DNA of 64,000 bases from NCBI GenBank assembly GCA_040767195.1, contig JAXGPA010000005.1, positions 1 through 64,000 on the forward strand, given 5' to 3'. Origin of the DNA: Syntrophales bacterium. GTDB taxonomy: Bacteria > Desulfobacterota > Syntrophia > Syntrophales > UBA6807. Below, one piece after another: positions 8,847-28,118 of this stretch (within the stretch, counting starts at the first letter, position 1; each line of letters begins with the position of its first letter). Under the pieces are notes generated by a model, which saw only the letters and a program-made list of their open reading frames with translations, had not been told where the DNA came from and did no database searches. The translations under genes and the position numbers were made by a program.

Positions 8847-8956
8847 CGTGGCGGATCGGTCATCCGGTGACGGGGGTCCGCCTTCAGGGGGCTCGTTCCT
8901 TGACGGCGGGGGCTTTATTTGATGAACTCGTAAAAGCCAAAAAATGTTCAGTTATC

Positions 8957-9082
8957 GACGGCTTTGTAAAAAGATCCAGAGGCAAGGCGCCCAAATCCCG
9001 AGGAATGAGACGTACGTATTGGTACGTCGCAATGACGAGGGATGAAGGGCAACACAGCCTATGGGCTTTTTACGAAGTCGTC
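8957..9082. mobile_element. 126-bp MITE-like element with 17-bp terminal inverted repeats
   Basis: Left GACGGCTTTGTAAAAAG versus reverse complement of right end GACGACTTCGTAAAAAG (15/17); internal hairpin GACGTAC-gtattg-GTACGTC; intergenic; extra end-like copy GATGAACTCGTAAAAG at 8921. Confidence 0.7.
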
Positions 9083-9113
9083 TTGAAATAAATGGAAAGT
9101 GAGACCTAAGAAC

Positions 9114-9554
9114 ATGAACAAGCTGAATCTCCAGTGGGACCTGCCGGACCTGAAACCCGGCCTTTCCAGGACCATTCAGAAAACCATCGGCGAATCGGAC
9201 AACCTGGCCTACGGGCACGGCGCGCTCACCGAGCTCCTGCCCACGCCGCCGCTCACCGCCCTCATGATCGAGGCGGCCATCCAGGTCGTGGACCCGCTCC
9301 TCCCGCAGGGGTATGTGACCGTCGCCACGTCCTTTTCCGTCACCTATCTCAGCCCGACCTTCCTGGGGGCGACCATCACCGTGGTGGCGACGCTGGTGGG
9401 CGTGGAGGGGAAAGGGCTGGTTTTCGATCTCATGGCCTTCGACGAGCTCGGCCAGGTCGGCCGGGGGCGCCACGAACGGTACATCGTCAATTCGGAACAC
9501 TTCATGGACACGGCCCGAAAACGCTGCGAGCCGATCAGGAAAATAATAAAATGA
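9114..9554 (+). CDS. Hotdog-fold thioesterase, FlK (fluoroacetyl-CoA thioesterase)-like
   Basis: LLPTPPLTALMIEAA, GYVTVA..V.YLSPTFLG, GRGRHERYIV pattern; alternative GTG start 9099. Confidence 0.8.
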   Translation: MNKLNLQWDLPDLKPGLSRTIQKTIGESDNLAYGHGALTELLPTPPLTALMIEAAIQVVDPLLPQGYVTVATSFSVTYLSPTFLGATITVVATLVGVEGKGLVFDLMAFDELGQVGRGRHERYIVNSEHFMDTARKRCEPIRKIIK

Positions 9555-9599
9555 CGGGGTAACGCAAGCCCGGCGGGTCCTGAAGAAAGGAAAAGAGAC

Positions 9600-11828: not shown

Positions 11829-13190
11829 TTGAAAAGGATTCTTGTTGTCGATGACGACGGGCGGGCCCGTTCATCCCTGTGCGCCCTTCTTCATGAAGGG
11901 GGATATGAAACGGACGAGGCGGCCACCGAAATCGAGGCGATGCGGCGCCTGGAACGAGGCGTCCACGAACTCGTCATTACCGATCTCTGCGCCCCGGACT
12001 GCGCCTGCATGGGGCTCCTGCACTGGATTCGGGATCACTACCCCCGGACCGACATCATCATCGTCAGCTCTTACGGTTCCGTCGACTGTGTCGTCCGGAC
12101 CATCAAGATGGGCGTCCTGAACTACGTGATGAAGCCCGTGGACGGCCCGGAATTCCTGAACCTCGTCCAGGAAGCCTTTCTTCGGCGTGAACATCACCTC
12201 CTGTCGCTGCGCCGGGTGAATGAGCCCTACTGTTATGTCGTCGACCGGGTGGTGGGCGTCTCCCGGAGCATGGAAAAAGTGCTCGAAACGGCTCTTCGGG
12301 TCACCGAGGTAGACAGCGGGATCCTGATCCATGGGGAAAGCGGAACGGGGAAGGAACTCGTCGCCCGGATCATCCACAACCGCAGCACCACCCGGGGCAA
12401 AAGAGAATTCGTCGCCATCAACTGCTCCGCCATCCCGAACGACATCCTGGAGAGCGAACTCTTCGGGTACGCCCAGGGGGCCTTCACGGGGGCGGGCCGG
12501 AGCCGCATGGGCCTCATCGAAGTGGCCGACGGCGGGACCCTTTTCATGGACGAGATCGGCGACACGACCCCCCAGTTCCAGTCGAAGCTTCTCCGGGTCA
12601 TCCAGGAAAAGGAAATCCGGCGCCTCGGAGATAACGAACGCCGTTCCGTGGATGTTCGGATCGTCGCCGCCACGAACCGGAACCTCCGGCAGATGGTCCG
12701 TGAAGGCGCCTTCCGGGAGGATCTTTACTACCGCTTGAGCGTCATCGACATCGTCCTCCCGCCTCTCAGGGAACGGCGGGAGGACATCGAGCCCCTGGTG
12801 TCGTACATCCTTCAGGAAATCAACGGCCGCCTGGGGAATGAAAGAAAAGGGGTTTCCGACGAGGCCATGGCCGTTCTCACGGCCTACCCGTGGCCGGGAA
12901 ATGTCCGGGAACTCAGGAACAGCCTGGAGCGCGCCGCCGTCCTGTCCGATCACCGGGTTCTTCAGCCCGGTGACTTTCCCCTGGCCCTGGATCACTACCT
13001 GAAAGGGTTGAAGACGGGCGGCGACGAAGACATCGTTCCCCTCAAGGAAATGGAGCGGCGGTACCTTCTCAAGGCCATGCACAAGTATAACTACAACCAG
13101 AAACTCGTGGCCCGGAAACTGGGCATCGGTTACACGACCCTGTGGCGGAAGCTCAAGTTGAACGACAAGGACTTCAAGTCGACCCCCTGA
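11829..13190 (+). CDS. Sigma54-dependent response regulator (NtrC family)
   Basis: Receiver (ILVVDDD, ITDL, KP), AAA+ GESGTGKE, ESELFG, GAFTGA, LFMDEIG, WPGNVREL, Fis-type HTH. Confidence 0.93.
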   Translation: MKRILVVDDDGRARSSLCALLHEGGYETDEAATEIEAMRRLERGVHELVITDLCAPDCACMGLLHWIRDHYPRTDIIIVSSYGSVDCVVRTIKMGVLNYVMKPVDGPEFLNLVQEAFLRREHHLLSLRRVNEPYCYVVDRVVGVSRSMEKVLETALRVTEVDSGILIHGESGTGKELVARIIHNRSTTRGKREFVAINCSAIPNDILESELFGYAQGAFTGAGRSRMGLIEVADGGTLFMDEIGDTTPQFQSKLLRVIQEKEIRRLGDNERRSVDVRIVAATNRNLRQMVREGAFREDLYYRLSVIDIVLPPLRERREDIEPLVSYILQEINGRLGNERKGVSDEAMAVLTAYPWPGNVRELRNSLERAAVLSDHRVLQPGDFPLALDHYLKGLKTGGDEDIVPLKEMERRYLLKAMHKYNYNQKLVARKLGIGYTTLWRKLKLNDKDFKSTP

Positions 13191-13376: not shown

Positions 13377-13392
13377 TGGCATGGCCGTTGCA
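13377..13392 (+). promoter_or_regulatory. Sigma54 -24/-12 promoter of the nuo operon
   Basis: TGGCATGGCCGTTGCA = GG-N10-GC, 41 nt upstream of the nuoA ATG, just downstream of a sigma54 activator gene. Confidence 0.8.
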
Positions 13393-13433: not shown

Positions 13434-13787
13434 ATGTCAACGGCCTGGTCTCTTGCTTTTTTCCTTTTCCTTGTCGCGGGGTCTGTGACGGCCATACTCC
13501 TGGTGTCCCACCGGGTGGGCCGCCGGCCCCTGGCGGCGGAAAAGGATGTTCCCTACGAGTGCGGCATGCTTCCCCTGGAGAAGCCCGACTCCCGGTTTTC
13601 CGTCCGCTTTTACAAGGTGGCCCTTCTTTTCGTCATCTTCGATGTTGAAATCGTCTTTCTTTACCTGTGGGCCCTCGTCGTCCGGGACCTCGGCGGGTTC
13701 GGGATCGTGGAGATGTTCGTCTTCATCGCCGTTCTCCTGGCGGCGCTCTTCTATGTCTGGCGAAAAGGGGACCTGGAATGGGAATAG
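13434..13787 (+). CDS. nuoA: NADH-quinone oxidoreductase subunit A
   Basis: [32 protein letters not shown]; start set at MSTAWS. Confidence 0.93.
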
Positions 13788-14257
13788 ACCGGATCGGTGA
13801 GAGCCGCGTCATCCGAGGGAACTTGGACAGGATCGTCGCCTGGGGGCGCCGGAATTCCCTGTGGCCCATGACTTTCGGGCTTGCCTGCTGCGCCATCGAG
13901 ATGATCGCGACGGCCGCCGCGCGCTACGACATCGCCCGGTTCGGCATGGAGGTTTTCCGGGCCTCGCCCCGCCAGGCCGACGTGATGATCGTCGCCGGGA
14001 CGGTGACGAAAAAAATGGCGCCCGCCGTGAGGAGGCTTTACGACCAGATGGCGGAACCCCGGTGGGTCGTCGCCATGGGATCCTGCGCCTGTTCGGGCGG
14101 CCTTTTTCCCACCTACGCGGTGGTCCAGGGGGTGGATTCCCTTCTGCCCGTGGACATCTATATCCCCGGGTGTCCCGTGAGGCCCGAGGCCCTTCTCGAC
14201 GGCCTCATCCGCCTCCAGGAAAAAATCGCCCGGGAGGCGAAGGAGGGGCTCCGATGA
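13778..14257 (+). CDS. nuoB: NADH-quinone oxidoreductase subunit B
   Basis: [39 protein letters not shown]. Confidence 0.95.
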
Positions 14258-14709
14258 TCGTCGAGGCCATCAGCCGGCGTTTCGGGGAATCCGTGGTAAA
14301 CGCGACGGTGTTCCGGGGGGAAACCACGATTACGACGGAGCGGAAGGCCCTCCTTCCCCTGGGGCGCTTCCTCCGGGACGAGCCCGGGCTCGCTTTCACC
14401 TTCCTTTCCGATCTGTGCGCTGTCGATCTCCATCCCCGGGCGCCCCGCTTCCAGGTGGTTTACCACCTCTTCGCACCGGACACGGGACACCGGCTGCGGG
14501 TCAAGGTGCCCCTGGACGGGGAAGACGCCGTCATCGACTCCGTCACGGGGATCTGGGAGACGGCGGACTGGCACGAAAGGGAGTGTTTCGACCTCTTCGG
14601 GATCCGGTTCAGGAACCACCCGGACCTGCGGCGGATCCTTCTCCCGGAGGCTTTCGAGGGACACCCCCTCCGCAAGGATTTTCCCCTGGGAGGGCGGACG
14701 GAGCCATGA
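14254..14709 (+). CDS. nuoC: NADH-quinone oxidoreductase subunit C
   Basis: [40 protein letters not shown] overlap with nuoB. Confidence 0.93.
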
Positions 14710-15875
14710 ACGAAAGAACCCTGACCCTCAACCTGGGCCCTCAGCACCCCAGCACCCACGGCGTCCTCCGGGTGATCCTGGAACTGGACGGCGAGACGGT
14801 CGTCGACGCCCGGCCCGACATCGGCTTTCTCCACCGGGGCATCGAGAAACTTGCCGAGTCGAGAACCTGGAACCAGTGCATCGTTCTCACGGACCGTATC
14901 GACTACCTGGCCGCCATGAGCAACAACCTGGCCTACGTGACGGCGGTGGAAAAGCTCATGGGCCTCGACGTTCCCCGGCGGGCCCAGTATGTCCGGGTCG
15001 CCCTGGCGGAACTCCAGAGAATCGCGAGCCACCTGTTCTGGCTGGGGACCCATGCCCACGACATGGGGGCCATGACGCCCCTTTTCTACGCCCTCAGGGA
15101 ACGGGAGGTCATCATGGACATTTTCGAGTCCCTGGCGGGATCCCGTCTCATGCCGAGTTTCCTGCGGATCGGCGGGCTCGCCGCCGACATCGACAGCGGT
15201 TTCGTAAAGTCCGTCCTGGGTTTCACCGAGTCCTTTTCCCGGCGCGTGGACGAGTACGAAAGTCTCCTCACGGACAACCCCATCTGGAAGCTTCGGACCC
15301 GGGGCGTCGGCATTCTCGACGGGGAAAACTGCCTCCGCCTGGGCATCTCCGGTCCCATGCTCCGGGGGGGCGGCGTGGGGTGGGACATTCGCAAGTCCCA
15401 CCCTTACAGCGGTTACGAGGACTTTCAATTTGAAATACCCGTCGGGATGGAGGGGGACGTCTACGACCGCTACCTCGTCCGGGTCCGGGAAATGCGGGAG
15501 AGCGCCCGGATCGCCCGGCAGGCCGTCGAGGGACTTCCGGAAGGAAGGTGGATCGCCGACGACCCGGCGGCCGTCTTTCCTCCCCGGGAGGATCTGAAGA
15601 ACAACGTGGCGGCCATGATCCGCCACTTCGGCCTCGTCATGGAAGGTATGAAGCCGCCCGCCGGGGAAGTCTACCAAGCCATCGAGTCACCCCGCGGGGA
15701 GCTGGGGTTCTATCTCGTCAGCGACGGGGGGCCGCGGCCGCTGCGCTTCAAGGTCCGGCCGCCTTCCTTCGTGAACCTCCAGGGGCTCGTGAAAATGATA
15801 CGGGGAAGGCTCCTGGCGGACGTCATGGCCGTCATCGGGGCCCTGGACATCGTCCTGGCCGAGGTGGACCGCTGA
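14706..15875 (+). CDS. nuoD: NADH-quinone oxidoreductase subunit D
   Basis: NLGPQHPSTHGVLR, GFLHRGIEK, DRIDY, ESPRGELG, ends EVDR; no NiFe CxxC ligands. Confidence 0.95.
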   Translation: MNERTLTLNLGPQHPSTHGVLRVILELDGETVVDARPDIGFLHRGIEKLAESRTWNQCIVLTDRIDYLAAMSNNLAYVTAVEKLMGLDVPRRAQYVRVALAELQRIASHLFWLGTHAHDMGAMTPLFYALREREVIMDIFESLAGSRLMPSFLRIGGLAADIDSGFVKSVLGFTESFSRRVDEYESLLTDNPIWKLRTRGVGILDGENCLRLGISGPMLRGGGVGWDIRKSHPYSGYEDFQFEIPVGMEGDVYDRYLVRVREMRESARIARQAVEGLPEGRWIADDPAAVFPPREDLKNNVAAMIRHFGLVMEGMKPPAGEVYQAIESPRGELGFYLVSDGGPRPLRFKVRPPSFVNLQGLVKMIRGRLLADVMAVIGALDIVLAEVDR

Positions 15876-15920: not shown

Positions 15921-16415
15921 ATGAGGCAGGAACTTGTGAATCGATTTTCCGGGGAGACAATGGCGCGGGTCGACGGCATCATTGCGGAATACGGAAAAAC
16001 ACCGGGAGCCCTTCTCGTCGTCCTGGAGAAAGTGCAGGATGAGACCCGGTACCTCCCCGTCGAGCTCCAGCGCTACATTGCCGGAAAGATGGGGATTCCC
16101 CCGAGCCGGGTCTTCGGGGTGGCGACCTTCTATTCCTATTTCAGCATCGTCCCCCGGGGCCGGAAGGTCGTCAAGGTCTGCAGCGGGACGGCCTGTTACG
16201 TGAAACGGGCCGGTGAAATCATGGATCGGCTGAGACGGAAAATCGGCGTGGAAGGCGGGGAAGTGTCCCCCGACGGGGAGTATTCCATCGAGGAGGTGCG
16301 CTGTCTCGGGGCCTGCGGGCTCGCGCCGGTCGTTGTCATCGGTGACCAGACCTTCGGGCTCATCGACCCGGAAAACGTGGAAGAAATTATCGAGAAAGCG
16401 GGTGAGGGATCATGA
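15921..16415 (+). CDS. nuoE: NuoE/HydC/HndA-like [2Fe-2S] subunit
   Basis: GVATFYSYF, VCSGTACYV, RCLGACGLAPV. Confidence 0.9.
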   Translation: MRQELVNRFSGETMARVDGIIAEYGKTPGALLVVLEKVQDETRYLPVELQRYIAGKMGIPPSRVFGVATFYSYFSIVPRGRKVVKVCSGTACYVKRAGEIMDRLRRKIGVEGGEVSPDGEYSIEEVRCLGACGLAPVVVIGDQTFGLIDPENVEEIIEKAGEGS

Positions 16416-16804
16416 CCTTTCAGGAACTGAAGGACATCAAGGACCGTTACATCGACGACCGGAAAAAGGAACAGGAGTCGGGCGTCATCGTCGTGGACGT
16501 CCACATGGGGACCTGCGGGATCGCCGCGGGGGCCCGGGACATTTTTCAGGTTCTCGAAAGGGAGAAGGAGCGGCTGAATCTCGACTACCTGCGCCTCCGT
16601 GTCACGGGGTGTGCCGGGCTCTGCAGCATGGAGCCCATGATCACCGTCCAGCGGCCCGGGGAGGCGCCCGTCAAGTACGGGAAACTGAACGGGGAAAAGA
16701 CCCGGGAGATCGTTTTCAGCCATATCCTCGGCGGACACCCCAAGACGGAGTACGCCATCGGCCGGGGCCTCGAGAAACCGCAGAAAAGGGTCGGCATGGA
16801 ATGA
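16412..16804 (+). CDS. Thioredoxin-like (2Fe-2S) ferredoxin-domain subunit, HndB/HydD-like
   Basis: VHMGTCGIAAGAR, VTGCAGLCSMEP, VKYG; overlaps both neighbours by 4 nt. Confidence 0.85.
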   Translation: MTFQELKDIKDRYIDDRKKEQESGVIVVDVHMGTCGIAAGARDIFQVLEREKERLNLDYLRLRVTGCAGLCSMEPMITVQRPGEAPVKYGKLNGEKTREIVFSHILGGHPKTEYAIGRGLEKPQKRVGME

Positions 16805-18588
16805 TCTCGTCGGTCAGCAAGATCGCCTACTGCACGAGCGGGAAGTGCAAGTTCCGTAAGAACATCGACGTCCGGGCCCTCCTCGAGAAGGCCCTCGACG
16901 AAATGGGCGGCCGGGACCGGATCGACCTCGTGGAAACGGAGTGCCTCATTTCCTGCTACCAGGGGCCCTCCATCATGTTCCTCCCGGGGGGGAAGGTCTT
17001 CCAGGTCCTTGCGGAAGACCGGTTCACCGAGACCCTGAAGTCGTTCATCGAGGCCCAGCGGCACCCCCTGTCGCCCTTCCAGGCGGAACCCCGGACGGAC
17101 GGGGACATCCCGGGCATCGAAAACCTGGACTTCTTCGGTCGCCAGAACCTCGTCGTTCTCCGGAACCGGGGGCACATCGACGGCGAAAGCATCGAGGAGT
17201 ACATCGCCCACGACGGCTATCTTGCCCTCTACAAGGCCCTGACGGTCATGACCGCCGAGGAGGTCATCGGCGAAATGAAGCGTTCCGGGCTCCGGGGCCG
17301 CGGGGGGGCCGGCTTTCCCACGGGCGTGAAGTGGGAGGAGGCCCGGAAGTACCGCCGGTTCCCCAAGTATGTCATCTGCAACGGGGACGAAGGCGACCCC
17401 GGGGCCTTCATGGACCGGAGCATCATGGAATCGGACCCCCACGCCGTCCTGGAAGGCATGATCATCTGCGGCTATGCCACCGGCGCCCGCCAGGGTTACA
17501 TCTACGTCCGGGCGGAATACCCCCTGGCGCTGCGCATGCTCCGGACCGCCATCGACAGTGCCCGGGAGAAGGGTTTCCTGGGACGGAACATCCTGGGGAC
17601 GGGTTTCGACTTCGACGTGGACATCTATCCCGGCGCCGGCGCCTTCGTCTGCGGCGAGTCGACGGCCCTCATGTATTCCATCGAGGGGAAGCGCGGCATG
17701 CCCCGCATCAAGCCGCCCCGCTCCACCGAGTCGGGCCTCTGGGGGAATCCGACCTGCCTCAACAACGTGGAGACCTTCGCCAACGTACCCCGGATCATCC
17801 TCGAGGGGGCCGAGTGGTTTCGGAGCATCGGCACGGCGGACTCGACGGGAACGAAGGTGTTCTCCCTCACCGGCGCCGTCAGGAACGTGGGTCTCGTGGA
17901 AGTTCCCATGGGGACGGACCTCCGGACCATCATCTTCCAGATCGGCGGGGGCATCCGGGGAAACGCCCGGTTCAAGGCCGTCCAGCTGGGCGGACCGTCG
18001 GGCGGGTGCCTCACGGAAAAACACCTTCACCTGCCGGTGACCTTCGACTCCCTCCAGGATGCCGGCGCCATGATGGGTTCCGGCGGCATCGTCGTCATGG
18101 ACGACACGAACTGCATGGTGGACGTGGCCCGGTTTTTCACCCAGTTCTGCGTCGACGAGTCCTGCGGCAAGTGCGTCCCCTGCCGGGTGGGCCTGAACGC
18201 CATGCTGGAAACCCTGGAAAAGATCATCGAGGGCCGCGGGGAGCCCAAGGACCTGGAGCGGCTGGAAGGGATGGCCAGGCACGTCGCCGCCACGGCTCAC
18301 TGCGGGCTCGGCCAGGCGGCCCCGAACCCCGTATTGAGCACTTTGAGATATTTCAGGGACGAGTACGAGGCCCACATCCGGGAGAAGCGCTGCCCCGCCC
18401 GTGTCTGCGTGGACCTTCTCCGGTTCGAGGTGGACGGGGAGGCCTGCCGCCGCTGCGGCCTCTGCGCCCGGGTCTGTCCCGTGGACGCCATAACCTGGAA
18501 GAAAGGAGACGTCGCCGTTATTGACCGGGACCGCTGCATCCGCTGCAAATCCTGCATCCGGGCCTGCCGCTTCAAGGCGATCGTTTAG
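16801..18588 (+). CDS. nuoF: Long NuoF/HydB/HndC-like FMN, NAD(P)H-binding subunit (595 aa)
   Basis: N-terminal Cys domain (CTSGKC...CLISC), SGLRGRGGAGFPTG, NGDEGDPGAFMDR, GAGAFVCGESTAL, GGPSGG, ESCGKCVPCR...CGLG, H...CP...C, C-terminal CRRCGLCARVCP and CIRCKSCIRAC. Confidence 0.92.
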   Translation: MISSVSKIAYCTSGKCKFRKNIDVRALLEKALDEMGGRDRIDLVETECLISCYQGPSIMFLPGGKVFQVLAEDRFTETLKSFIEAQRHPLSPFQAEPRTDGDIPGIENLDFFGRQNLVVLRNRGHIDGESIEEYIAHDGYLALYKALTVMTAEEVIGEMKRSGLRGRGGAGFPTGVKWEEARKYRRFPKYVICNGDEGDPGAFMDRSIMESDPHAVLEGMIICGYATGARQGYIYVRAEYPLALRMLRTAIDSAREKGFLGRNILGTGFDFDVDIYPGAGAFVCGESTALMYSIEGKRGMPRIKPPRSTESGLWGNPTCLNNVETFANVPRIILEGAEWFRSIGTADSTGTKVFSLTGAVRNVGLVEVPMGTDLRTIIFQIGGGIRGNARFKAVQLGGPSGGCLTEKHLHLPVTFDSLQDAGAMMGSGGIVVMDDTNCMVDVARFFTQFCVDESCGKCVPCRVGLNAMLETLEKIIEGRGEPKDLERLEGMARHVAATAHCGLGQAAPNPVLSTLRYFRDEYEAHIREKRCPARVCVDLLRFEVDGEACRRCGLCARVCPVDAITWKKGDVAVIDRDRCIRCKSCIRACRFKAIV

Positions 18589-18613: not shown

Positions 18614-20995
18614 ATGATCATCTTGCGCATCAACGACCGGGAGATCACCGTGCCCCAGGGGAGCACGATCCTGGAAGCGGCCCGGAAGGCCGGCGTTTAC
18701 GTCCCCACGCTGTGTCACGACGAGCGGGTCACCCCTTACGGGGCCTGCCGCCTCTGTGTCGTGGAAAACCGCGGGAAGCCGGGCGCCCTCCTGCCTTCCT
18801 GTTTCACCCCCGCCCGAAACGGCATGGACATCGTCACCGACTCGGAGACCGTCCTGAACGCCGTCCGGACGCAGTTGCAGCTCATTCTCATCAACCACCC
18901 CCTGGACTGCCCCGTCTGTGACAAGGCCGGGGAGTGCGTCCTCCAGGACCTGGTGATCCGTTACGGCATTTCCGAGGTCCCCTTCACCGTCGACCCCGTT
19001 CCCCGGCTCGTGGACAACGGGTCGCCTCTCATCGTGAGGGACATGAACCGGTGCGTTCTGTGCGGCCTCTGTGTCCGGATCTGCGGGGAACTCCAGGGAA
19101 GAGGGGAACTCGATTTCATACACCGCGGGTACCGGACCGAGGTGGGAACGGACGGAGGCCGACCCCTGGACTGCGATTTCTGCGGCCTGTGCGTTTCCGC
19201 CTGTCCCGTGGGGGCCCTGGGAGACAAGCTGTTCAGAAACCGGACCCGGGTGTGGAAACTGGACCGCGAAACGACCGTGTGCAGCCACTGCGGCCTGGGC
19301 TGCCGCGTCGAGTTTCATCTCGAGGAAGAACAAATCCGGCGGGTTGTACCCGGAAAGGGGAACAACGGCGGGAAAGGCCTCCTCTGCGTGCGGGGACAGT
19401 TCGGCTGGCGGGCCTTCGAGGACCCCGCCCGGCCCGTGAAGCCGCGAATCCGCCGGGCCGGCCGGCACGAGGAAGTCTCCTGGCCCGATGCCGTTGAATT
19501 CACCGCAAAACGCCTTCAGACGTTTCTCGGGGCCCATGGGGGCGACGCCCTGGCCGTGGTCACGGCGGATCACCTCACCACGGAGGAGGCCGGCACCTGC
19601 GGGACGTTCCTTCGGGAAACCCTCGGGTGCGGGAATGTCGGTTCCCTCCAGGCGGGGGGGTACCGGCGGATCGTTTCCGTTCTTCAGGAGAAAATCGGGG
19701 AAGACCGGTTTCCCGTGACTTTTCGGGACATCACGGAAGCGGACATTCTCCTGGTCATAGGCGGCGGTGCCGCCGAGCATCACCCCGTTCTCAAGCCCTT
19801 CATCAACGGCTTCCTGAAATCACCGGGGAAGGAACTGGTGGTGCTTTCGTCCTGGCCGGATTACGTCCTGGAACGGGCCACTCTGCCTCTTCTCATACCG
19901 CCGGAACGGTTCGACGAATTTTTGAAGGAAACGCGGGAGGCCTTTTCGCAAGATCGAGCGGGATCTAACGGGGACATCGACCGTTTTTCCATCCCCACGG
20001 ACCGGCTGGCCCGGTTCATCGGCCTTCTCGAATCGCGCCGGGACACGGTCGTCCTGGTCGTTCCCGACCTGTTCGGAGACAGCGGGGAAAGGGCCCGCAT
20101 GGCTGCGTTCCTGCAGAGCCGGGCCCGGGCCATCCTGCCGCTTGGGGGGCAGATGAACAGCCGCGGGGCCGTTCTCGATGCCGGGCTGGGTTCCCGCGGC
20201 GCCGTGAGGGACCGCCAGGCCTTTCTGAAAGCCCTGGAGGAAGGGCGGATCCGCGGCCTGTGGCTTCTCGGGGAGGACCCCCTGGAGAGGCTCCCCGGCG
20301 GGGACCGGCTCCGGGCGGCCCTGGAAAAGCTCGAACTGATCATCTGCCAGGGTCCCTTCGAAACGGCGGTGACCGGCCTGGCTGACGTTATTCTGCCCTC
20401 GTCCCTGCCGGTGGAAAAAGGGGGGACCGTCCGCTCTATGACCGGTGAAAGGAAAACCCTCCGCCCGATCCGGCCCCGATTAGGGGAGGCCCGGCCGGAC
20501 GGGGACATTTTCGAGGATATCGAACAGGCCCTCCGGAGAGCGGGCGGTGTTTCTTCAAGACCATTTTCGGAATGGAATCCAGCTGGAGAGGCTTTCCCGG
20601 AACCCGGGCGCCATGAGCCTGCGGGCGCTTTTTCGAGGGAAAAACCTCTTGACGACCTCACAGTATCCGGCGGTTTCCCCTGCACCCTCGTCGCCGTGCC
20701 GTCCCTCTTCGGGGACGGGTCCCTGTCGCTGCGAAGCCCCGATCTGGGGGATCTCCGCCGGGGGATTCAGGTTCTCCTGAATATCGCCGACTTCGAGGAA
20801 ATGGGTTTCGCGGACCGGGAAGAGGTGTCCGTCCGGACATCCCTCGGTACCGCCCCGGCGGCGGTCCGCCCGTTCAGGGGGGGAAGCCGGGGAGTGGCCC
20901 TCATTCGCCATGTCACGGGAAAGCCGGAAGCGCTTTCCCTCCTGCCGCCGGGAAGAGCCGCCGTGCAGGCGGTCATCGAAAGGAGGCGCCTGTGA
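18614..20995 (+). CDS. nuoG: NuoG-like Fe-S subunit with degenerate molybdopterin-oxidoreductase fold
   Basis: PTLC...GACRLC...SC, HPLDCPVCDKAGEC, CVLCGLCVRIC, CDFCGLCVSACP, CSHCGLGC...LCVRG; alternative start 18593. Confidence 0.88.
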   Translation: MIILRINDREITVPQGSTILEAARKAGVYVPTLCHDERVTPYGACRLCVVENRGKPGALLPSCFTPARNGMDIVTDSETVLNAVRTQLQLILINHPLDCPVCDKAGECVLQDLVIRYGISEVPFTVDPVPRLVDNGSPLIVRDMNRCVLCGLCVRICGELQGRGELDFIHRGYRTEVGTDGGRPLDCDFCGLCVSACPVGALGDKLFRNRTRVWKLDRETTVCSHCGLGCRVEFHLEEEQIRRVVPGKGNNGGKGLLCVRGQFGWRAFEDPARPVKPRIRRAGRHEEVSWPDAVEFTAKRLQTFLGAHGGDALAVVTADHLTTEEAGTCGTFLRETLGCGNVGSLQAGGYRRIVSVLQEKIGEDRFPVTFRDITEADILLVIGGGAAEHHPVLKPFINGFLKSPGKELVVLSSWPDYVLERATLPLLIPPERFDEFLKETREAFSQDRAGSNGDIDRFSIPTDRLARFIGLLESRRDTVVLVVPDLFGDSGERARMAAFLQSRARAILPLGGQMNSRGAVLDAGLGSRGAVRDRQAFLKALEEGRIRGLWLLGEDPLERLPGGDRLRAALEKLELIICQGPFETAVTGLADVILPSSLPVEKGGTVRSMTGERKTLRPIRPRLGEARPDGDIFEDIEQALRRAGGVSSRPFSEWNPAGEAFPEPGRHEPAGAFSREKPLDDLTVSGGFPCTLVAVPSLFGDGSLSLRSPDLGDLRRGIQVLLNIADFEEMGFADREEVSVRTSLGTAPAAVRPFRGGSRGVALIRHVTGKPEALSLLPPGRAAVQAVIERRRL

Positions 20996-21951
20996 TTTCC
21001 TGGGATCTCATCGCTGGTATCCTGCGGATTGTCGTTTTCTTCTCCGTCATCATGGGGATCGTGGCCTACATGACCCTCATGGAGAGGCGGTTTCTGGCCT
21101 TTTTCCAGGTCCGCCGGGGACCGAACCGCGTGGGTCCCCTCGGTCTTCTTCAGCCCATCGCCGACGGGATCAAGCTTTTCTTCAAGGAAGACCTGACCGT
21201 TTCCCATGCGAACCGCTTCTACTTCATCCTGGCGCCGGCCGTGGCTGTCGTGTCGGTCCTCGCGTGCTTCGCCGTCGTGCCCGTCTCCCCCGGCGTCGTC
21301 GTGGCCGATCTTCCCGTCGCCGTCCTCTATCTCCTGGCCTTTTCCTCCCTGGGGATTTACGGGGTCCTCCTGGCGGGGTGGTCGTCCAACAACAAGTTCT
21401 CCCTCCTGGGGGGACTGCGGGCCGCCGCCCAGATGGTCAGTTACGAGATTCCCCTGGCCCTGGCCGTGACGGCCATCGTCGTTCTCGCCGGTTCCATGAG
21501 CCTGGTGGACATCGTGCGGGCCCAGGAAGGCCTCTGGTTCGCCGTGAAGCAGCCCCTGGGATTCCTGATCTTTCTTATCGCCGTCTCGGCGGAGACGAAC
21601 CGCACGCCCTTCGATCTCCTGGAATGCGAGAACGAACTGGTTGCCGGCTACCAGACCGAATACGCCTCCATGAAATTCGGCCTTTTCTACATGGCCGAGT
21701 ACGCCCACATCCTCCTGGCGTCATGCCTCGTCAGCCTTTTTTTCCTCGGGGGCTGGAACGGCCCGTTTTTCCCGCCGCCGGTCTGGTTTTTCGGCAAGGT
21801 ATTTCTCGTTTTTGCGGTCTTCGTCTGGGTCCGGGCGACTTTTCCGAGAGTCCGTTATGACCAGCTCATGACGTTCTCCTGGAAGGTTCTCATGCCGCTT
21901 GGATTTCTGAACCTCATGGTGACGGCCCTGGCGGTCGTCTATCTTGCCTAA
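20992..21951 (+). CDS. nuoH: NADH-quinone oxidoreductase subunit H
   Basis: RRGPNRVGPLGLLQPIADGIKL, AAQMVSYE, ETNRTPFDL, RATFPRVRYDQL. Confidence 0.95.
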   Translation: MISWDLIAGILRIVVFFSVIMGIVAYMTLMERRFLAFFQVRRGPNRVGPLGLLQPIADGIKLFFKEDLTVSHANRFYFILAPAVAVVSVLACFAVVPVSPGVVVADLPVAVLYLLAFSSLGIYGVLLAGWSSNNKFSLLGGLRAAAQMVSYEIPLALAVTAIVVLAGSMSLVDIVRAQEGLWFAVKQPLGFLIFLIAVSAETNRTPFDLLECENELVAGYQTEYASMKFGLFYMAEYAHILLASCLVSLFFLGGWNGPFFPPPVWFFGKVFLVFAVFVWVRATFPRVRYDQLMTFSWKVLMPLGFLNLMVTALAVVYLA

Positions 21952-21960
21952 GGAGCTGTT

Positions 21961-22401
21961 ATGGTCAACGGGCTGATCCGGGGGCTGGCCCTCACGTTCA
22001 GGACCTTTTTCAGCCGTTCCGTCACGGAGGAATACCCCGAGGTCAAGCGGCCTCTGCCGGAACGTTTCCGGGGACGGCCGGTCCTTCTCGCCGGAGAGGA
22101 CGGGCGGCCCCGCTGTGTCGCCTGTGGTCTTTGTGAAAAGGTCTGCCCGTCTCAGTGCATTACCGTCGTTCCCGGGACGGGCCCCGGCGGCGGGAGGACC
22201 CTCCGCCATTACGGGCTCGATCTCGGCCGGTGCGCTTTCTGCGGCCTGTGCGTTTCGTCGTGTCCCGTGGAGGCCCTGGCCATGGGCGGGGAATACGAAC
22301 TGGCCGTCGAGAACCGGAAGGCCCTTTTATACACGGCGGACCGGCTTCTCGCCCTGCCGGGAGATCCAGGGAATGATGTCGCGACAAAGGGGGACAAATG
22401 A
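21961..22401 (+). CDS. nuoI: NADH-quinone oxidoreductase subunit I
   Basis: TEEYPE..RFRG, CVACGLCEKVCP, CAFCGLCVSSCP. Confidence 0.93.
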   Translation: MVNGLIRGLALTFRTFFSRSVTEEYPEVKRPLPERFRGRPVLLAGEDGRPRCVACGLCEKVCPSQCITVVPGTGPGGGRTLRHYGLDLGRCAFCGLCVSSCPVEALAMGGEYELAVENRKALLYTADRLLALPGDPGNDVATKGDK

Positions 22402-22456: not shown

Positions 22457-22972
22457 ATGGACACCCTGGTTTTCTGGATCCTCGCCGGCACGGCCGTCCT
22501 GTCGGCCCTCGCTGTCGTGGTCCTGAAAAATCCCATGAACAGTGTCGTGGCCCTCCTGGTGACCCTTCTCGTCACGGCGGGGCTTTATCTTCAGATGGGT
22601 GCCTTCGTCATCGCCCTCTTCCAGGTGATCCTGTATGTCGGGGCCGTTCTTGTCCTCTTTCTTTTCGTGATCATGACCCTCGACCTGAAGTCCTCCCGGG
22701 AAAGGCCCGTCCTTTCGCCGAGGGGACTGGCAGCCGCTGTCACGGCCGGCATTTTTTTCATCGCAGGGGCGGGCTGGTTTGCAAGCCGGGGCGGTTTTTT
22801 CCCAAAAACGGCGGTCTCCCCGGGTGTTCCGGGCAACGGTCCCGGGATCCGGGAGATCGCCCTGGATCTCTTCACGGGCCATCTCCTGGTTTTCGAACTC
22901 GCGTCGGTGCTGCTCCTGGCCGCCGCCGTCGCGGCCCTCGTGATCGTCCGCAAGGAAAGGAGCCGCCCATGA
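22457..22972 (+). CDS. nuoJ: NADH-quinone oxidoreductase subunit J
   Basis: NPMNS, QVILYVGAVLVLFLFVIM, FELASVLLL. Confidence 0.92.
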   Translation: MDTLVFWILAGTAVLSALAVVVLKNPMNSVVALLVTLLVTAGLYLQMGAFVIALFQVILYVGAVLVLFLFVIMTLDLKSSRERPVLSPRGLAAAVTAGIFFIAGAGWFASRGGFFPKTAVSPGVPGNGPGIREIALDLFTGHLLVFELASVLLLAAAVAALVIVRKERSRP

Positions 22973-23268
22973 GCCTCGAATCGGTCATGGTCACCGGGAT
23001 CGTCCTTTTCATCATCGGGGCCTCGGGGTTTTTGCTCCGTGGCAATGCCATCGTTCTGCTCCTTTGCATCGAGGTCATGCTGAACGCTGTCAATCTCATC
23101 CTGGTGGGTTTCGCCCGTTACCTTTACGGCACGGAGGGACAGGTGTTCGTTTTCATCATCATGACGGTGAGCGCCGCCGAAGCCGCCGTGGGACTGGCCA
23201 TCGTCGTGGCGCTGGTCCGGCTCTTCGGGACGGCCGACATGACCAGGATCAATCTCCTGAAAGGGTGA
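22969..23268 (+). CDS. nuoK: NADH-quinone oxidoreductase subunit K
   Basis: IEVMLNAVNL, GQVF, VSAAEAAVGLAI. Confidence 0.93.
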   Translation: MSLESVMVTGIVLFIIGASGFLLRGNAIVLLLCIEVMLNAVNLILVGFARYLYGTEGQVFVFIIMTVSAAEAAVGLAIVVALVRLFGTADMTRINLLKG

Positions 23269-23271
23269 ACC

Positions 23272-25143
23272 ATGTCGCTTTCCTCGTTCCTGTGGATCCT
23301 TCCCGCCCTTCCGGCCCTGGGTGTCCTGGTTAACGGCTTTTTCGGAACGTCCTGGCGGGAGAAAAAAATCGCCTCCATGTCCGTCGGTTCCGTGGGCCTG
23401 GCCCTGGCCTTTGCCCTGGTGTTCGCCGCGGAACTTTTCGCCCGGCTTCCCGGCGACAGGCGCCTGTCCATGAGCCTGTACCGGTGGCTTTCCGACGGCT
23501 CGCTGACCGTCGATCTGGGGCTTTTCCTAGATCCCCTTTCCATGGTCATGGTCTTCGTCGTTCTCTTCGTCGGTTTTCTCATCCATCTTTACTCGGCCGG
23601 CTACATGACGGGCGATCCCGGGTACCGCCGCTATTTCGTCTTTCTCAATCTCTTCATCTTCTTCATGCTTCTTCTCGTGCTGGCGGACAACCTCGTTCTC
23701 ACCTTCGTCGGATGGGAGGGGGTCGGGCTTTGTTCCTACCTCCTCATCGGTTTCTGGTACGAAAAGACCTCGGCCTGCGATGCCGGCCGGAAGGCCTTCG
23801 TGGTGAACCGCGTCGGAGATTTCGGGTTTCTTCTCGGCATCCTTCTCGCCGCCGTCGTCTTCGGCACGGTGAATTATGGGGAGATCGCCCGCCTCCTCGG
23901 GTCAGACCCCGCCGTCGCCCCGGGCATCACGGCGGCCGTGGCCCTGCTTCTTTTTCTGGGGGCCATGGGAAAGTCCGCCCAGTTTCCCCTTCACGTGTGG
24001 CTTCCCGATGCCATGGAAGGGCCCTCGCCGGTGTCGGCCCTCATCCACGGCGCAACCATGGTCAACGCCGGCGTCTACCTGCTCTGCCGGATTTCCCCCC
24101 TCCTGGAGGCGGCCCCCGCTGTCTTTCCCGTCATCGCCTCGGTGGGGCTGGCCACGGTCCTCTACGCGTCCCTCTCCGCCCTGGGTCAGCGGGACATCAA
24201 GCGGCTTCTCGCCTACTCGACGGTGAGCCAGATCGGCTACATGTTTGTCGCCGTGGGCTGCGGTCTCTATTCCGCCGGCATGTTCCACCTCATGGCCCAC
24301 GGCATCTTCAAGGGCCTTCTCTTCCTCGCCGCCGGCGCCGTCATACACGCCCTCGACGGCAGGCAGGACCTGGAAGAAATGGGGGGACTGGGGAAGGAAC
24401 TTCCCGTTGTTTCCCTCACCTTTGTCGCCGGGACCCTGGCTCTGGCGGGGGTCTTTCCCCTTTCTGGCTTTTTCAGCAAGGACGCCATCCTCTGGGGAAG
24501 CCTCGGGCGTTACGGCCTCCTCTTCTGGATCGCCGCCTTCACGGGGGCGCTCGTCACGGCCCTTTATTCGGGAAAGCTGCTGGCTGCTTTCCTGGGGGAA
24601 AAACGTTTCGAGGGATCCCTGCACCGCCCCGGAACGGTTGTTGTTGTTCCCCTTCTGGTCCTGGCCCTGTCGACGCTCGCCGCCGGCCTTCCGGGACTGC
24701 CCCTTTTCACGGAAGAGACCTTTTTCGCCCGATTCCTCGGAATGCCCGCCCACACGTTCCTGGCGGGGGAACACACGCTCGAGGGGGTCCTCATGGTCGG
24801 CCAGCTGGGTCTGATCGTCATCGTGCTTTGTGCCGCCGCGCGCTTTTTCACGGTGTCCCGGAAAGCGCCGGTATCGGAGGCCCTTGCGAGCGGTTTCGGC
24901 GTCGACCGCCTCTATGAGCGGCTTTTCGTCCGGCCACTGAAAACCATGGCCCGTTTTTGCTTTTCCGTCATCGACAGCCGTTTCGTCGACGGCCTGGTCA
25001 ACGGTTTCGGGGCCCTTTCCATGGCCCTTGGAACCCTCGTGGCGGGATATCAGTCGGGCTTCCTTCGCCGCTACGCCGCCTCTCTCGCGGGGGGCGCCGT
25101 GGCACTCATCGCCTTGAGTATCTGGTTCCAGGGAGGTTTCTGA
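23272..25143 (+). CDS. nuoL: NADH-quinone oxidoreductase subunit L
   Basis: GWEGVGLCSYLLIGFW, KAFVVNRVGD, GKSAQFPLHVWLPDAMEGP, AYSTVSQIGYM. Confidence 0.95.
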   Translation: MSLSSFLWILPALPALGVLVNGFFGTSWREKKIASMSVGSVGLALAFALVFAAELFARLPGDRRLSMSLYRWLSDGSLTVDLGLFLDPLSMVMVFVVLFVGFLIHLYSAGYMTGDPGYRRYFVFLNLFIFFMLLLVLADNLVLTFVGWEGVGLCSYLLIGFWYEKTSACDAGRKAFVVNRVGDFGFLLGILLAAVVFGTVNYGEIARLLGSDPAVAPGITAAVALLLFLGAMGKSAQFPLHVWLPDAMEGPSPVSALIHGATMVNAGVYLLCRISPLLEAAPAVFPVIASVGLATVLYASLSALGQRDIKRLLAYSTVSQIGYMFVAVGCGLYSAGMFHLMAHGIFKGLLFLAAGAVIHALDGRQDLEEMGGLGKELPVVSLTFVAGTLALAGVFPLSGFFSKDAILWGSLGRYGLLFWIAAFTGALVTALYSGKLLAAFLGEKRFEGSLHRPGTVVVVPLLVLALSTLAAGLPGLPLFTEETFFARFLGMPAHTFLAGEHTLEGVLMVGQLGLIVIVLCAAARFFTVSRKAPVSEALASGFGVDRLYERLFVRPLKTMARFCFSVIDSRFVDGLVNGFGALSMALGTLVAGYQSGFLRRYAASLAGGAVALIALSIWFQGGF

Positions 25144-25144
25144 T

Positions 25145-26713
25145 ATGCCCGTTTCTCCCTTTCCGTTACTGTCCCTCATGGTTCTTCTTCCCCTTGCGGG
25201 AAGCGCCGTCGTCCTTTCCGGACGGGAACGGTGGGCCCCCCACGGGGCGCTGGCCGTGACGACGGCCACCTTTCTTTTGACCCTTGTGCCCCTCTTTTTC
25301 TTCCGGCCTGGGCAGACGGGCTTCCTGTTCGTAGAAAAATATTCCTGGATCAGCGCCCTCGGCATCTCGTACCACCTGGGCGTGGATGGGCTTTCCCTGT
25401 TTCTTCTTCCCCTGACGGGCTTTCTTTCCGTCATCGCGGTCCTCGTCTCCTGGAACGCCGTGAAGGAGAAAGTGAAGGCCTACTTCGTCTCCTTCCTCGT
25501 CCTGGAGGCGGCCATGCTGGGGGTCTTCGTCGCTCTCGACGCCATCCTGTTTTACCTGTTCTGGGAAGCCATGCTCATTCCCATGTTCCTCATCATCGGC
25601 ATCTGGGGGAGCCAAAACCGCCGCTATGCCGCCGTGAAGTTCATCATCTACACCGTGGCGGGAAGCCTTTTCCTTCTCGTGGGGTTTATCATCACGGCCT
25701 TTCTCTCCGACTCCCTGGGCGCGGGTTTCTCATTCGACGTGACCCGGTGGGGCCTCCTGGCCGTGCCGGAAGTACACCAGCGCTGGCTTTTCCTTCTCTT
25801 CTTTGTCGCTTTTGCCGTCAAGGTGCCTCTCGTGCCGTTTCACACGTGGCTGCCCGACGCCCACACGGAAGCGCCGACAGCGGGAAGCCTCATTCTCGCC
25901 GGGGTCCTTCTCAAGATGGGGGTATATGGCATGCTGCGCTTCTGCTTTCCCCTCTTTCCGCAGGCCGTGGCCTTTTTCACCCCCGCCGTCATGACCCTCG
26001 GCCTCGTGGGAGTCGTTTACGGGGCCCTGGTGGCCTTCGCCCAGAAGGATCTGAAAAAACTCATCGCCTACTCGAGCGTGAGCCACATGGGGCTTATCAT
26101 CGTGGGGATTTTCACCATGACCGCGGCGGGCCTGAAAGGCGGAATCGTACAAATGGTGAACCACGGGCTGAGCACCGGCGCCCTTTTCATCCTGGCCGGG
26201 GCCGTTTACGAGCGGAAAAGGACGCGGAACCTGGACGAGCTCGGGGGGCTGGCGGGGAAAGCCCCTATCCTCTCCGTTTTTTTCGTCATAGCCATGCTTT
26301 CCTCGGTGGGGCTTCCCGGGCTGAACGGTTTTGTCGGGGAATTTCTCCTTCTTCTGGGGAGCTTCCAGTTCCGGTGGTGGGTGGGGGCGCTCGCCGCCAC
26401 CTCGGTCATTCTCGGGGCCGTCTATCTCCTGTGGATGACCCAGCGGGTCCTTTTCGAGAGAGACAGGTCTCCCGAGGCCGGTCCTTTCAAAGATTTCTGT
26501 CTGCGGGAACGGCTGGTCATGACGTCCCTGGCCTTTCTCATGTTTGCCATCGGTTTTTTCCCGTCGGGTCTGACGGACCGCCTGGAATCGACGGCGGGGA
26601 AGTTTAAAGCCGCCGCGGCGGCAACCGGGCCGGCGGTGGCCGCCATCGCCGTCGGGGATGAAAAAATCAGCTTCGAGGGAGTCACCTATGAATTTCGCCT
26701 TGCCGGACATTAA
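25145..26713 (+). CDS. nuoM: NADH-quinone oxidoreductase subunit M
   Basis: FWEAMLIPM, PFHTWLPDAHTEAPTAGS, LLKMG, KKLIAYSSVSHMG, GLPGLNGFVGEF. Confidence 0.95.
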   Translation: MPVSPFPLLSLMVLLPLAGSAVVLSGRERWAPHGALAVTTATFLLTLVPLFFFRPGQTGFLFVEKYSWISALGISYHLGVDGLSLFLLPLTGFLSVIAVLVSWNAVKEKVKAYFVSFLVLEAAMLGVFVALDAILFYLFWEAMLIPMFLIIGIWGSQNRRYAAVKFIIYTVAGSLFLLVGFIITAFLSDSLGAGFSFDVTRWGLLAVPEVHQRWLFLLFFVAFAVKVPLVPFHTWLPDAHTEAPTAGSLILAGVLLKMGVYGMLRFCFPLFPQAVAFFTPAVMTLGLVGVVYGALVAFAQKDLKKLIAYSSVSHMGLIIVGIFTMTAAGLKGGIVQMVNHGLSTGALFILAGAVYERKRTRNLDELGGLAGKAPILSVFFVIAMLSSVGLPGLNGFVGEFLLLLGSFQFRWWVGALAATSVILGAVYLLWMTQRVLFERDRSPEAGPFKDFCLRERLVMTSLAFLMFAIGFFPSGLTDRLESTAGKFKAAAAATGPAVAAIAVGDEKISFEGVTYEFRLAGH

Positions 26714-28118
26714 CCTCCTTGCCGTTCTTCCCGAGTTGATCCTCCTCGCCGCAGCCGTGGGGGTTCTCTTTTTTCGGGCGCCGGGGTCGAACGGGACGGC
26801 GCTGGGAACGGCCCTGGCCGCCGTGGCCCTGTCTGTCCTCGTGACACCCTTCCTGTACGGGGATTTGAGCGGGACGGCGTTTTCCGGGGCCATCGCGAAG
26901 GATGACGCCACCCTTTTCTTCATCTTCCTGGCGGACCTGGCGGTCCTGGTCGCCCTTGTCCTTTCCCGGAACGACACCATGGGAGACGGGAACGGAGAGG
27001 CTTACTACGGCCTTCTTCTCTTCGCCCTTTTCGGGATGCACGTCATGATCTCCGCCCGGGACCTGCTCGTCCTGTTTCTGGGCCTGGAGATCCTGTCCCT
27101 CCCTTTTTACGTTCTGACGGGCTTTCACAGGAAAAGAAAAGAAGGTCTCGAGGGGGCTGTCAAGTATTTCCTCCTCGGCAGTTTTTCCTCCGCCCTCTTT
27201 CTCCTGGGGATGGCCCTCTATTACGGGGGTGCGGGAACCACAAGCCTCGGGGCTCTTTTCTCCGCCGGTCAGCCGGTGTTTCTTTTCGCGGGCCTGGCCT
27301 TCGTCACGGCGGGCCTGGCCTTCAAGATCGCCGCCGTTCCCTTTCACATGTGGGCGCCCGATGTTTACGAGGGGGCGCCCCTCAGCGTGGCCGCCTGCAT
27401 TTCCGTGGCCCCCAAGGTCGCCGCCTTCGCCGTACTCCTTCACCTCGGCCTCCTGTATGCCGGGAGCGGGGCAGATTTTTTCCCCTGGGCCGTCGCCGCC
27501 ATGGCGGCGGCGGGCATGGTCGTGGGAAACCTCGCCGCCCTGCGGCAGGAAGGGCTGGTGCGCATGCTTGCCTACTCCGGTATCGCCCAGGCGGGGTACA
27601 TCCTCATGGGGCTGCCCCTTCTTTCCCCTGAGGGCCATTCGGCCATCGCCTTTTATCTTTTTGTCTACCTGGTCATGAACCTGGGCGCCTTCGCGGCGGC
27701 GATAACCATGGCCGCGCCGGGAAAAACGGGGCCGCGGATCATCGATCTTGCCGGCCTTGCGTCACGGCGGCCCTTTCTCGCCTTCGCCATGGCCGTTTTC
27801 ATGGTTTCCCTGGCGGGGCTTCCCCCAACGGGCGGTTTTTTCGCCAAGTTTTTTATCTTCAAGGCCGCCGTCGGGGCGGGGTGGCTGACCCTTGTCCTCC
27901 TGGCCGTCGTGATGTCCGTCGTTTCACTTTTTTATTATCTCAAGGTTATCGTGGTCATGTATATGAGGCCGGGGGAAGGCACAGAGGACAGGGAGGTGGA
28001 ATCGCCGTTTTCCGGGGCGCTCATCGCCTTCATGGCCCTGGTCACCCTGGCGACGGGCCTTCTTCCGTCACCTCTTTTCCACGGCATTCAGTCCCTTTTT
28101 TCCAGGATCATCCTGTGA
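26688..28118 (+). CDS. nuoN: NADH-quinone oxidoreductase subunit N
   Basis: EGAVKYF, FKIAAVPFHMWAPDVYEGAP, RMLAYSGI, SLAGLPPTGGF; ATG 26688 with GGAG RBS. Confidence 0.95.
   Translation: MNFALPDINLLAVLPELILLAAAVGVLFFRAPGSNGTALGTALAAVALSVLVTPFLYGDLSGTAFSGAIAKDDATLFFIFLADLAVLVALVLSRNDTMGDGNGEAYYGLLLFALFGMHVMISARDLLVLFLGLEILSLPFYVLTGFHRKRKEGLEGAVKYFLLGSFSSALFLLGMALYYGGAGTTSLGALFSAGQPVFLFAGLAFVTAGLAFKIAAVPFHMWAPDVYEGAPLSVAACISVAPKVAAFAVLLHLGLLYAGSGADFFPWAVAAMAAAGMVVGNLAALRQEGLVRMLAYSGIAQAGYILMGLPLLSPEGHSAIAFYLFVYLVMNLGAFAAAITMAAPGKTGPRIIDLAGLASRRPFLAFAMAVFMVSLAGLPPTGGFFAKFFIFKAAVGAGWLTLVLLAVVMSVVSLFYYLKVIVVMYMRPGEGTEDREVESPFSGALIAFMALVTLATGLLPSPLFHGIQSLFSRIIL

Follow-up and report, generated by a model that had tools for sequence, protein, structure and literature searches.

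A candidate NADP(H)-type complex I with a bifurcation-type flavoprotein subunit in a Syntrophales bacterium

Introduction

In textbook accounts complex I works with NADH, and its use of NADPH had to be engineered; in NuoF of Escherichia coli, single changes at Glu183, reportedly those made by Morina and colleagues in 2011, brought such use about. The present analysis deals with a 64,000-nucleotide stretch from a Syntrophales bacterium (GenBank assembly GCA_040767195.1, contig JAXGPA010000005.1, positions 1 to 64,000; hereafter the window), which encodes a complete nuoA-N cluster containing a NuoF-like flavoprotein of the BfuB (HydB) type with 595 amino acids (16801..18588) and with Ser287 and Arg307 in its nucleotide pocket. 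All window features given below lie on the plus strand, and published statements are cited throughout from passages of the papers named by their PMC numbers.

Both halves of the system suggested by this gene are known, one as a prediction of 2022, Nuo-Bfu, and the other as an NADP pocket in a soluble hydrogenase. Nuo-Bfu was predicted by Schut et al. for BfuB clades 38 and 39 as a complex that transfers electrons from NADH and reduced ferredoxin to menaquinone in the forward direction (PMC9304861), and the passages of that paper name no NADP version of it. Purified HydABC of Thermoanaerobacter kivui reached 20.8 U/mg when given NADP+ but <0.01 when given NAD+ (PMC8578170), while NAD+ is the cofactor of the Acetobacterium woodii enzyme (PMC10021017) and NAD is bound at the flavin mononucleotide (FMN) site in NfnB subunits (PMC12018979, PMC11829005). 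An NADP-type Nuo-Bfu was not found in open-licence papers and bioRxiv; alignment pictures in the supplements of Bfu papers might already show the residues.

Nucleotide pocket of the NuoF-like subunit

The two strings from which the preliminary description had read an NADPH-type signature, CGESTAL and KPPRS, are both present at the positions given there: Ser287 is encoded by TCG (17659..17661), and Arg307 by CGC (17719-17721) within residues 304-308. Ser287 replaces a ribose-binding Glu, and its proposed equivalence to Glu183 of E. coli is upheld at the sequence level by a gapless stretch of the BLASTP alignment with NuoF of E. coli K-12 (44% identity over the core), in which Arg307 corresponds to Phe203; Ser287 likewise aligns with Glu286 of Thermococcus sibiricus NfnB. 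Ser and Arg occupy both positions in 120/120 of the best homologs among the matches listed in a protein search (59-98% identity), so that they represent neither a sequencing error nor a private change. The only other NuoF-like protein of the same genome has Glu and Phe at these positions.

For calibration, the alignments of seven B subunits from solved Bfu structures were inspected. Ser+Arg was found in one of them, T. kivui HydB (8a6t), and Glu+Phe/Tyr in the other six (7p5h, 9bov, 8oh5, 9n5u, 7t2r and 7q4v). An alignment with NAD- and NADP-specific homologs had been suggested earlier as a check, and it pairs the window protein with the NADP-only T. kivui enzyme and not with the six Glu+Phe/Tyr chains. 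In the legend of the NADP+-bound T. kivui structure, Phe205 and Arg340 are named as nucleotide contacts (PMC10021017); at an alignment offset of 33 these correspond to Phe172 in the Gly-rich loop (17314..17316) and to Arg307, the first residue of Arg307-Ser308-Thr309-Glu310 (17719..17730), which replaces Phe/Tyr. That Arg340 binds the 2'-phosphate is an inference of this analysis and is not said in the legend. Glu286 of T. sibiricus NfnB hydrogen-bonds adenosine O2'/O3' and thereby ensures NADH over NADPH (PMC12018979), and GDEGDPG in place of ADEGDPG has been proposed as an NADP mark of T. kivui HydB and of group A4, including HytB of Clostridium autoethanogenum (PMC9431212). The window protein reads GDEGDPG with Gly195 (17383..17385). 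Its pocket therefore combines the lack of an acid at the ribose position with an Arg at the 340-equivalent and the Gly of GDEGDPG. The pocket has a third covarying position, Glu180 (17338..17340), where Glu287-type proteins mostly carry Phe/Leu/Ala and T. kivui carries Gly.

Judged by these residues, the pocket very probably prefers NADP. Without Glu at 287, the 2'-phosphate would no longer meet a repelling charge; Arg307, in the place of an aromatic residue beside the adenosine, would bind that phosphate. An AlphaFold model (built on 35/121 homologs; mean predicted local distance difference test score, pLDDT, 76) fell below a pLDDT of 50 in the pocket, and its pocket geometry and the fold search were discarded. 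The Gly+Arg loci of Firmicutes were also rejected as an added calibration, being trimeric HydABC-type clusters and not Hyt-type, and no NADP determinants were found in passages of a Synechocystis Hox preprint.

Bifurcation marks of the subunit

The earlier proposal of a natural NADP(H)-dependent complex I stands in so far as the NADP pocket is backed by the T. kivui HydB swaps and the published role of Glu286, whereas its assumption of an ordinary NuoF has to be given up in favour of a BfuB/HydB-type protein with ferredoxin-coupling marks. The protein scored 490.8 bits against TIGR01959, below the NuoF equivalog cut-off of 558.65, and is 595 amino acids long versus ~430 for canonical NuoF, with Ser287 for Glu; its nine best PDB matches are all Bfu-type B subunits, ahead of any complex I NuoF. 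Cys ligands are present for cluster B5 (11, 16, 48, 52), B1 (455, 458, 461, 501) and B3/B4 (549-559, 579-589), together with the four ligands of the B2 metal site (Cys438, His525, Cys531 and Cys536; 3 Cys + His). Counted together with NuoE, the encoded subunits hold all C1/B1/B3/B4/B5 ligands of the Bfu family. The AFM motif Ala202-Phe203-Met204 (17404..17412), Phe282 (17644..17646), which equals Phe281 of T. sibiricus NfnB, and GGPSG at G397-G401 are also found, and these three are described as marks of bifurcating members that are absent from non-bifurcating enzymes (PMC12018979). B3/B4 ligands and AFM are intact in 121/121 proteins and Phe282 in 120/121. On this evidence the protein is classed as a BfuB/HydB-type subunit with all the electron-bifurcation marks and not as a canonical NuoF, and the EFG(X) module is likely to bifurcate or confurcate with ferredoxin.

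Covariation and phylogeny of the pocket residues

Among 88 matches from 80 GTDB loci, 70 carried Glu+Phe/Tyr at positions 287/307, 18 carried Ser/Gly+Arg and none was mixed. When matches from all loci spanning query 160-500 were taken and identical cores merged, the resulting 181 distinct cores separated into 108 with Glu+Phe/Tyr and 73 with Ser/Gly+Arg/His (His for Arg in six), again with no mixed case, and positions 308, 180, 310 and 195 split in the same way. Each pocket trait changes 7 times on a tree built without the motif columns. The Ser+Arg proteins form one clade of 52 rows with a Shimodaira–Hasegawa (SH)-like support of 100, or an SH approximate likelihood ratio test (SH-aLRT) value of 99 in a 51-row IQ-TREE run. 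On this tree, without T. kivui HydB and with no approximately unbiased test, the clade is nested in Desulfobacterota subunits of the Glu type, and the Gly+Arg hydrogenases of Firmicutes and two Nuo-Bfu of Geobacteraceae branch separately from it. A module swap from NADP-type hydrogenases of Firmicutes is not favoured by this nesting.

Inside the clade, one paralog (L223, genome G445) has regained Glu+Phe, with Ala at 180, which points to a joint reversal or a conversion of the pocket. A separate BfuB group in the order (L090, L101, L106, L108, L109 and L110) carries Ser287 with His at 307 in a remodelled loop, and it is possible that this group represents a second NADP-type pocket.

The nuoA-N cluster and its putative control

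The cluster is complete and co-directional in the order nuoA-B-C-D-E-X-F-G-H-I-J-K-L-M-N, and its genes are spaced by -26 to 55 bp. The 14 core subunits, A-N, are all encoded at this one place, and A-D and H-K have no second copy in the genome. The genes upstream of the flavoprotein are nuoA (13434..13787; start inferred, longest reading frame from 13326), nuoB (13778..14257; above the TIGR01957 cut-off), nuoC (14254..14709; above that of TIGR01961), nuoD (14706..15875; TIGR01962 556 bits vs a cut-off of 459) and nuoE, or BfuC (15921..16415), with Cys 87, 92, 128 and 132 for cluster C1. Between nuoE and nuoF lies an extra subunit X of 130 amino acids (16412..16804) with Cys 35, 67 and 71 and no NCBIfam match at 1e-10, which we take to be HndB/HydD-like; it is kept between E and F in the clade loci and also stands beside the second BfuB of the genome. 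Downstream follow nuoG, or BfuA (18614..20995; 793 amino acids, five iron–sulfur motifs, TIGR01973 326 bits, below the cut-off of 470, 26% identity to E. coli NuoG), nuoH (20992..21951), nuoI (21961..22401; above the TIGR01971 cut-off), nuoJ (22457..22972) and nuoK (22969..23268), with nuoH, nuoJ and nuoK assigned by NCBIfam search, and then nuoL (23272..25143; TIGR01974), nuoM (25145..26713; TIGR01972) and nuoN (26688..28118; TIGR01770). The last three, antiporter-like, are all above their family cut-offs, and proton translocation is predicted. NuoD forms the quinone site with His, Tyr and Asp residues, and His14, His18, Tyr67 and Asp119 are identical to those of E. coli NuoCD in the alignment; a motif scan of NuoD gave no nickel-binding CxxC. 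Docking of the EFG(X) module on the Nuo arm is expected with high confidence.

A gene for a sigma-54 response regulator of the AtoC/NtrC type (11829..13190; best NCBIfam match AtoC with 363 bits, below the cut-off of 714) lies directly upstream, and a sigma-54 (-24/-12) promoter-like motif (13377..13392) precedes nuoA. This motif occurs within 400 bp upstream of nuoA in 15/15 same-order clade loci that hold nuoA, in 0/9 more distant clade loci and in 0/20 other nuo loci; its background frequency in the genome is 0.003 per 400 bp. A homolog of the AtoC-like activator (52-82%) stands beside nuoA in 14 of the same 15 loci. The activator of the window has several Cys in its receiver domain, including CAPDCAC at residues 54-60. 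Read cover from public runs was considered as expression evidence and rejected: the contigs of four runs, one probably DNA and three labelled metatranscriptomic, showed flat cover over genes and flanks alike, which reveals a close relative with the same region and no transcription signal.

Further upstream (7671-11534) are a thioesterase-like gene, a BaiCD/FadH-like flavoenzyme gene and a gene for a membrane protein that presumably resembles the beta subunit of sodium decarboxylases. Elsewhere in the genome, a second BfuC-X-BfuB cluster (L002:9356-13338; G000:C1) encodes a B subunit of 1018 amino acids that keeps Glu+Phe and whose ferredoxin end is replaced by a fused GltD-like NADPH/flavin adenine dinucleotide (FAD) domain; throughout the order there are further open frames of ~1020 amino acids with this match. 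By its domains, this fused protein could link NADH and NADPH.

Distribution in the order and the phylum

BfuB was matched at E <= 1e-222 in 21 of the 301 genomes of the order; all 21 proteins have Ser+Arg, and nuoD lies just upstream in 19. Of the same-order loci, 16 were analysed with long flanks. The A-N set is present in 13 of them, with no J match in one; of the other three, one is cut off by the end of its contig, another carries A-F and then unrelated genes, and the third carries just E and F. In the phylum, a cut-off of E <= 1e-215, which lets in Glu-type proteins too, gives matches in 51/401 genomes, and 28/29 of the best non-self loci are Ser+Arg. Eight of 20 phylum loci with long flanks have a Ser+Arg best match, six of them in full nuo clusters and two in soluble clusters. 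The NADP-type proteins are resolved as a single clade across several Desulfobacterota families. One Glu+Phe locus with the same nuo gene order, L216, is an NAD-type sister and offers a natural control.

NuoD was found in 83/301 genomes of the order, and none of the 20 non-clade nuo loci examined there has an NADP-type pocket; the canonical NuoF of these other complexes has no bifurcation marks. Eight of the 20 (L164-L169, L179 and L180) show no nuoE match and a weak NuoF-like match (28-34%) between nuoD and nuoG, which indicates a different input module. In family f35, members of the NADP-type clade stand in a soluble cluster (L224:2480-18384 and L225) that combines an Fdh-like A subunit, an electron-transferring flavoprotein (ETF), acyl-CoA dehydrogenases and two HdrA-like genes.

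Host physiology, energetics and direction

The genome (2.39 Mb, 98.8% complete) encodes beta-oxidation together with an ETF and EMO-like cluster (assigned by sequence and CCG domain), two cytochrome b (membrane) formate dehydrogenases besides soluble ones, 2-oxoacid:ferredoxin oxidoreductases and a small 2[4Fe-4S] ferredoxin (G000:C1:709873-710094). Searches of the genome for RnfC, [FeFe] hydrogenase and PntAB found none of them. MenA scored above its cut-off and MenB only at crotonase level; two MenA-like prenyltransferases are encoded (L152:8130-9101 and L151:8205-9110). MqnA/D were found neither here nor in 5/5 relatives, with MenA present in 4/4 of those tested. A quinone pool is likely in this host, to judge by MenA, the EMO-like protein and the two formate dehydrogenases with cytochrome b, and the gene content suggests that the menaquinone head group comes by salvage or by an unknown route. 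A radical SAM gene beside one of the menA-like genes was considered as a menaquinone methyltransferase and rejected, since it matches AhbD-type families; MenK was not directly searched. For Syntrophus aciditrophicus it has been proposed that assimilation draws its reduced ferredoxin from Rnf, and the redox loop of this organism runs over 8-methylmenaquinone (-150 mV; PMC8805022).

With published potentials of -280 mV for NAD, -380 mV for NADP, -500 mV for ferredoxin and -150 mV for methylmenaquinone, the span against methylmenaquinone per two electrons amounts to 260 meV for NADH, 460 for NADPH, 480 for NADH plus ferredoxin and 580 for NADPH plus ferredoxin, and the balancing gradient at 4 H+ to 65, 115, 120 and 145 mV, respectively. 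The pair NADPH plus ferredoxin is thus near equilibrium with a plausible gradient, so that the enzyme could run either way. Reverse transfer for anabolism is favoured because the products of beta-oxidation are NADH and quinol and include neither NADPH nor reduced ferredoxin. A proton gradient would push electrons from (methyl)menaquinol up the Nuo arm to NADP+ and ferredoxin, and the NADPH and reduced ferredoxin so made would serve biosynthesis under sigma-54 control.

The steps of this account differ in strength. It is moderately probable that a complex I with an NADP-type BfuB couples NADP(H), probably with ferredoxin, to the quinone pool and to proton translocation. The reverse direction is the weakest step, towards which the balance tilts only slightly. 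The whole, namely a naturally NADP(H)-specific complex I working in reverse, with a bifurcating head that produces NADPH and reduced ferredoxin in one step and takes on the anabolic task of Rnf plus transhydrogenase in syntrophs as well as in several further families of Desulfobacterota, is put forward tentatively and must be called doubtful. If true, it would give a natural complex I clade working on the NADP pool and a new entry between proton gradient and anabolic reductant, with a possible source of reduced ferredoxin and NADPH in Rnf-less syntrophs. The residue package 287, 307-308, 310, 195 and 180 would also serve as a test of NAD versus NADP across the Bfu family and as a design rule for cofactor switching.

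Weighing of alternative readings

Several observations weigh against the proposed NADP(H)-coupled, bifurcating and reverse-running complex, and most of them belong to one of three other readings. A pocket that is relaxed or still prefers NADH, as in a standard Nuo-Bfu using NADH and ferredoxin or in an enzyme taking both nucleotides, is quite improbable. It would fit the NADH, not NADPH, that beta-oxidation yields, and the acid that Glu180 adds near the site where T. kivui has Gly. The calibration includes a single tested NADP enzyme with Ser+Arg, T. kivui HydB, with HytB outside that comparison, and the AlphaFold model has a pLDDT <50 at residues 279-283 and 285-317, which cover the pocket. 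In HoxF of Cupriavidus necator, the positions of the E341A/S342R exchange are presumably equivalent to the 287-type site of the pocket. The engineered double mutant accepted both cofactors, its specificity being only relaxed (PMC10127272). As to covariation, the 181-core sample is enriched for the Ser+Arg clade, and the tree offers just 5 independent pairs on branches with good support, all concordant (5/5; sign test p = 0.0625), too few for significance. The enzyme of T. kivui, which shares Ser, Arg and Gly195, prefers NADP+ by more than 2000-fold (PMC8578170), and this nevertheless speaks for a true NADP pocket, as do the movement of the swaps as a package, jointly reverted in L223, and the Glu+Phe kept by the NAD-type Nuo-Bfu relatives L216, L017 and L029.

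A non-bifurcating NADPH:quinone oxidoreductase, working with NADP(H) only and keeping its extra clusters as vestiges, is improbable. NADPH alone would suffice for it, as its 460 meV covers 4 H+ at 115 mV, and no assayed Nuo-Bfu exists in the literature examined. The 2022 description gives B2 a fifth ligand, Cys/Thr (PMC9304861), at which position the window protein has Ile476, with Ile/Val in 18/18 same-order and 27/34 other clade rows. Since most Bfu structures show B2 as a zinc site of the 3Cys-1His type that needs no fifth ligand (PMC11829005), Ile476 is compatible with bifurcation. The near-universal B3/B4 ligands, AFM and Phe282 of the 121 proteins, marks that the passages of PMC12018979 describe as missing from non-bifurcating enzymes, argue against this reading, as does their absence from the canonical NuoF of other complexes in the order. 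It is very unlikely that EXFG forms a soluble NADP/ferredoxin enzyme or serves another partner, with an 11-subunit-type membrane complex fed separately or with an acceptor other than menaquinone. The same BfuB clade does occur without nuo genes (L146, L224, L225), beside ETF, acyl-CoA dehydrogenase and HdrA genes in L224 and beside two-component genes in L146, and complexes without NuoEF exist in the order (6/20 loci without an F match, besides one incomplete locus). In one same-order genome (L134:7470-15785, G013) the cluster stops after nuoF, with nuoG-N absent from the next 8 kb, reflecting a split operon, decay or an assembly problem. No menaquinone head-group genes (MqnA/D, MqnC, MenC, MenD) turned up in the genome, which is 98.8% complete. 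Against a soluble enzyme stand the position of the genes between nuoD and nuoH, their overlapping stop and start codons and the same order in at least four families, a NuoG without a hydrogenase or other catalytic partner in a genome where no [FeFe] hydrogenase was found, and the indications of a quinone pool set out above.

Two further points tell against the proposed reverse-running complex. RnfC is found in 0/21 clade genomes, and only 25/301 genomes of the order pass the cut-off (32 at E <= 1e-60); exclusion of Rnf was dropped as support (P = 0.15, or 0.087 at E <= 1e-60, among kin that are not independent), and the Rnf pattern lends no statistical support to the reverse direction. Expression of the cluster is not evidenced in the four public runs.

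Comparison with known systems

The window cluster resembles Nuo-Bfu in the placement of the BfuABC genes midway along a nuoA-N cluster, in all BfuBC cofactor ligands and in menaquinone as the proposed third substrate (PMC9304861), and differs from it in the NADP-type pocket, the extra subunit X and the sigma-54 site; the two Geobacteraceae Nuo-Bfu examples have Glu+Phe and branch apart from the window clade. With T. kivui HydB (PDB 8A6T; PMC8578170, PMC10021017) the flavoprotein shares Ser for Glu, Arg340/Arg307, Phe205/Phe172, GDEGDPG and the cluster set, whereas HydABC is a soluble bifurcating [FeFe] hydrogenase with H2 as third substrate and has Gly for Glu180 and Thr for Ile476. Overall, T. 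kivui HydB is no closer to the window protein than are NAD-type Bfu subunits (673 bits vs 705 and 686). E. coli NuoF has the same fold and position and lacks B2-B5 and AFM, and the swaps of the window protein are natural and clade-wide. NfnABC/StnABC (Nfn-Bfu; PDB 8OH5, 9BOV, 9N5U) have a BfuBC core that also links NADP(H), NAD(H) and ferredoxin, but NADP(H) is handled at a separate FAD domain of the A subunit and Glu is kept at the FMN site for NAD. In the predicted window complex, by contrast, the FMN site itself would be NADP-type and its partner would be the membrane arm.

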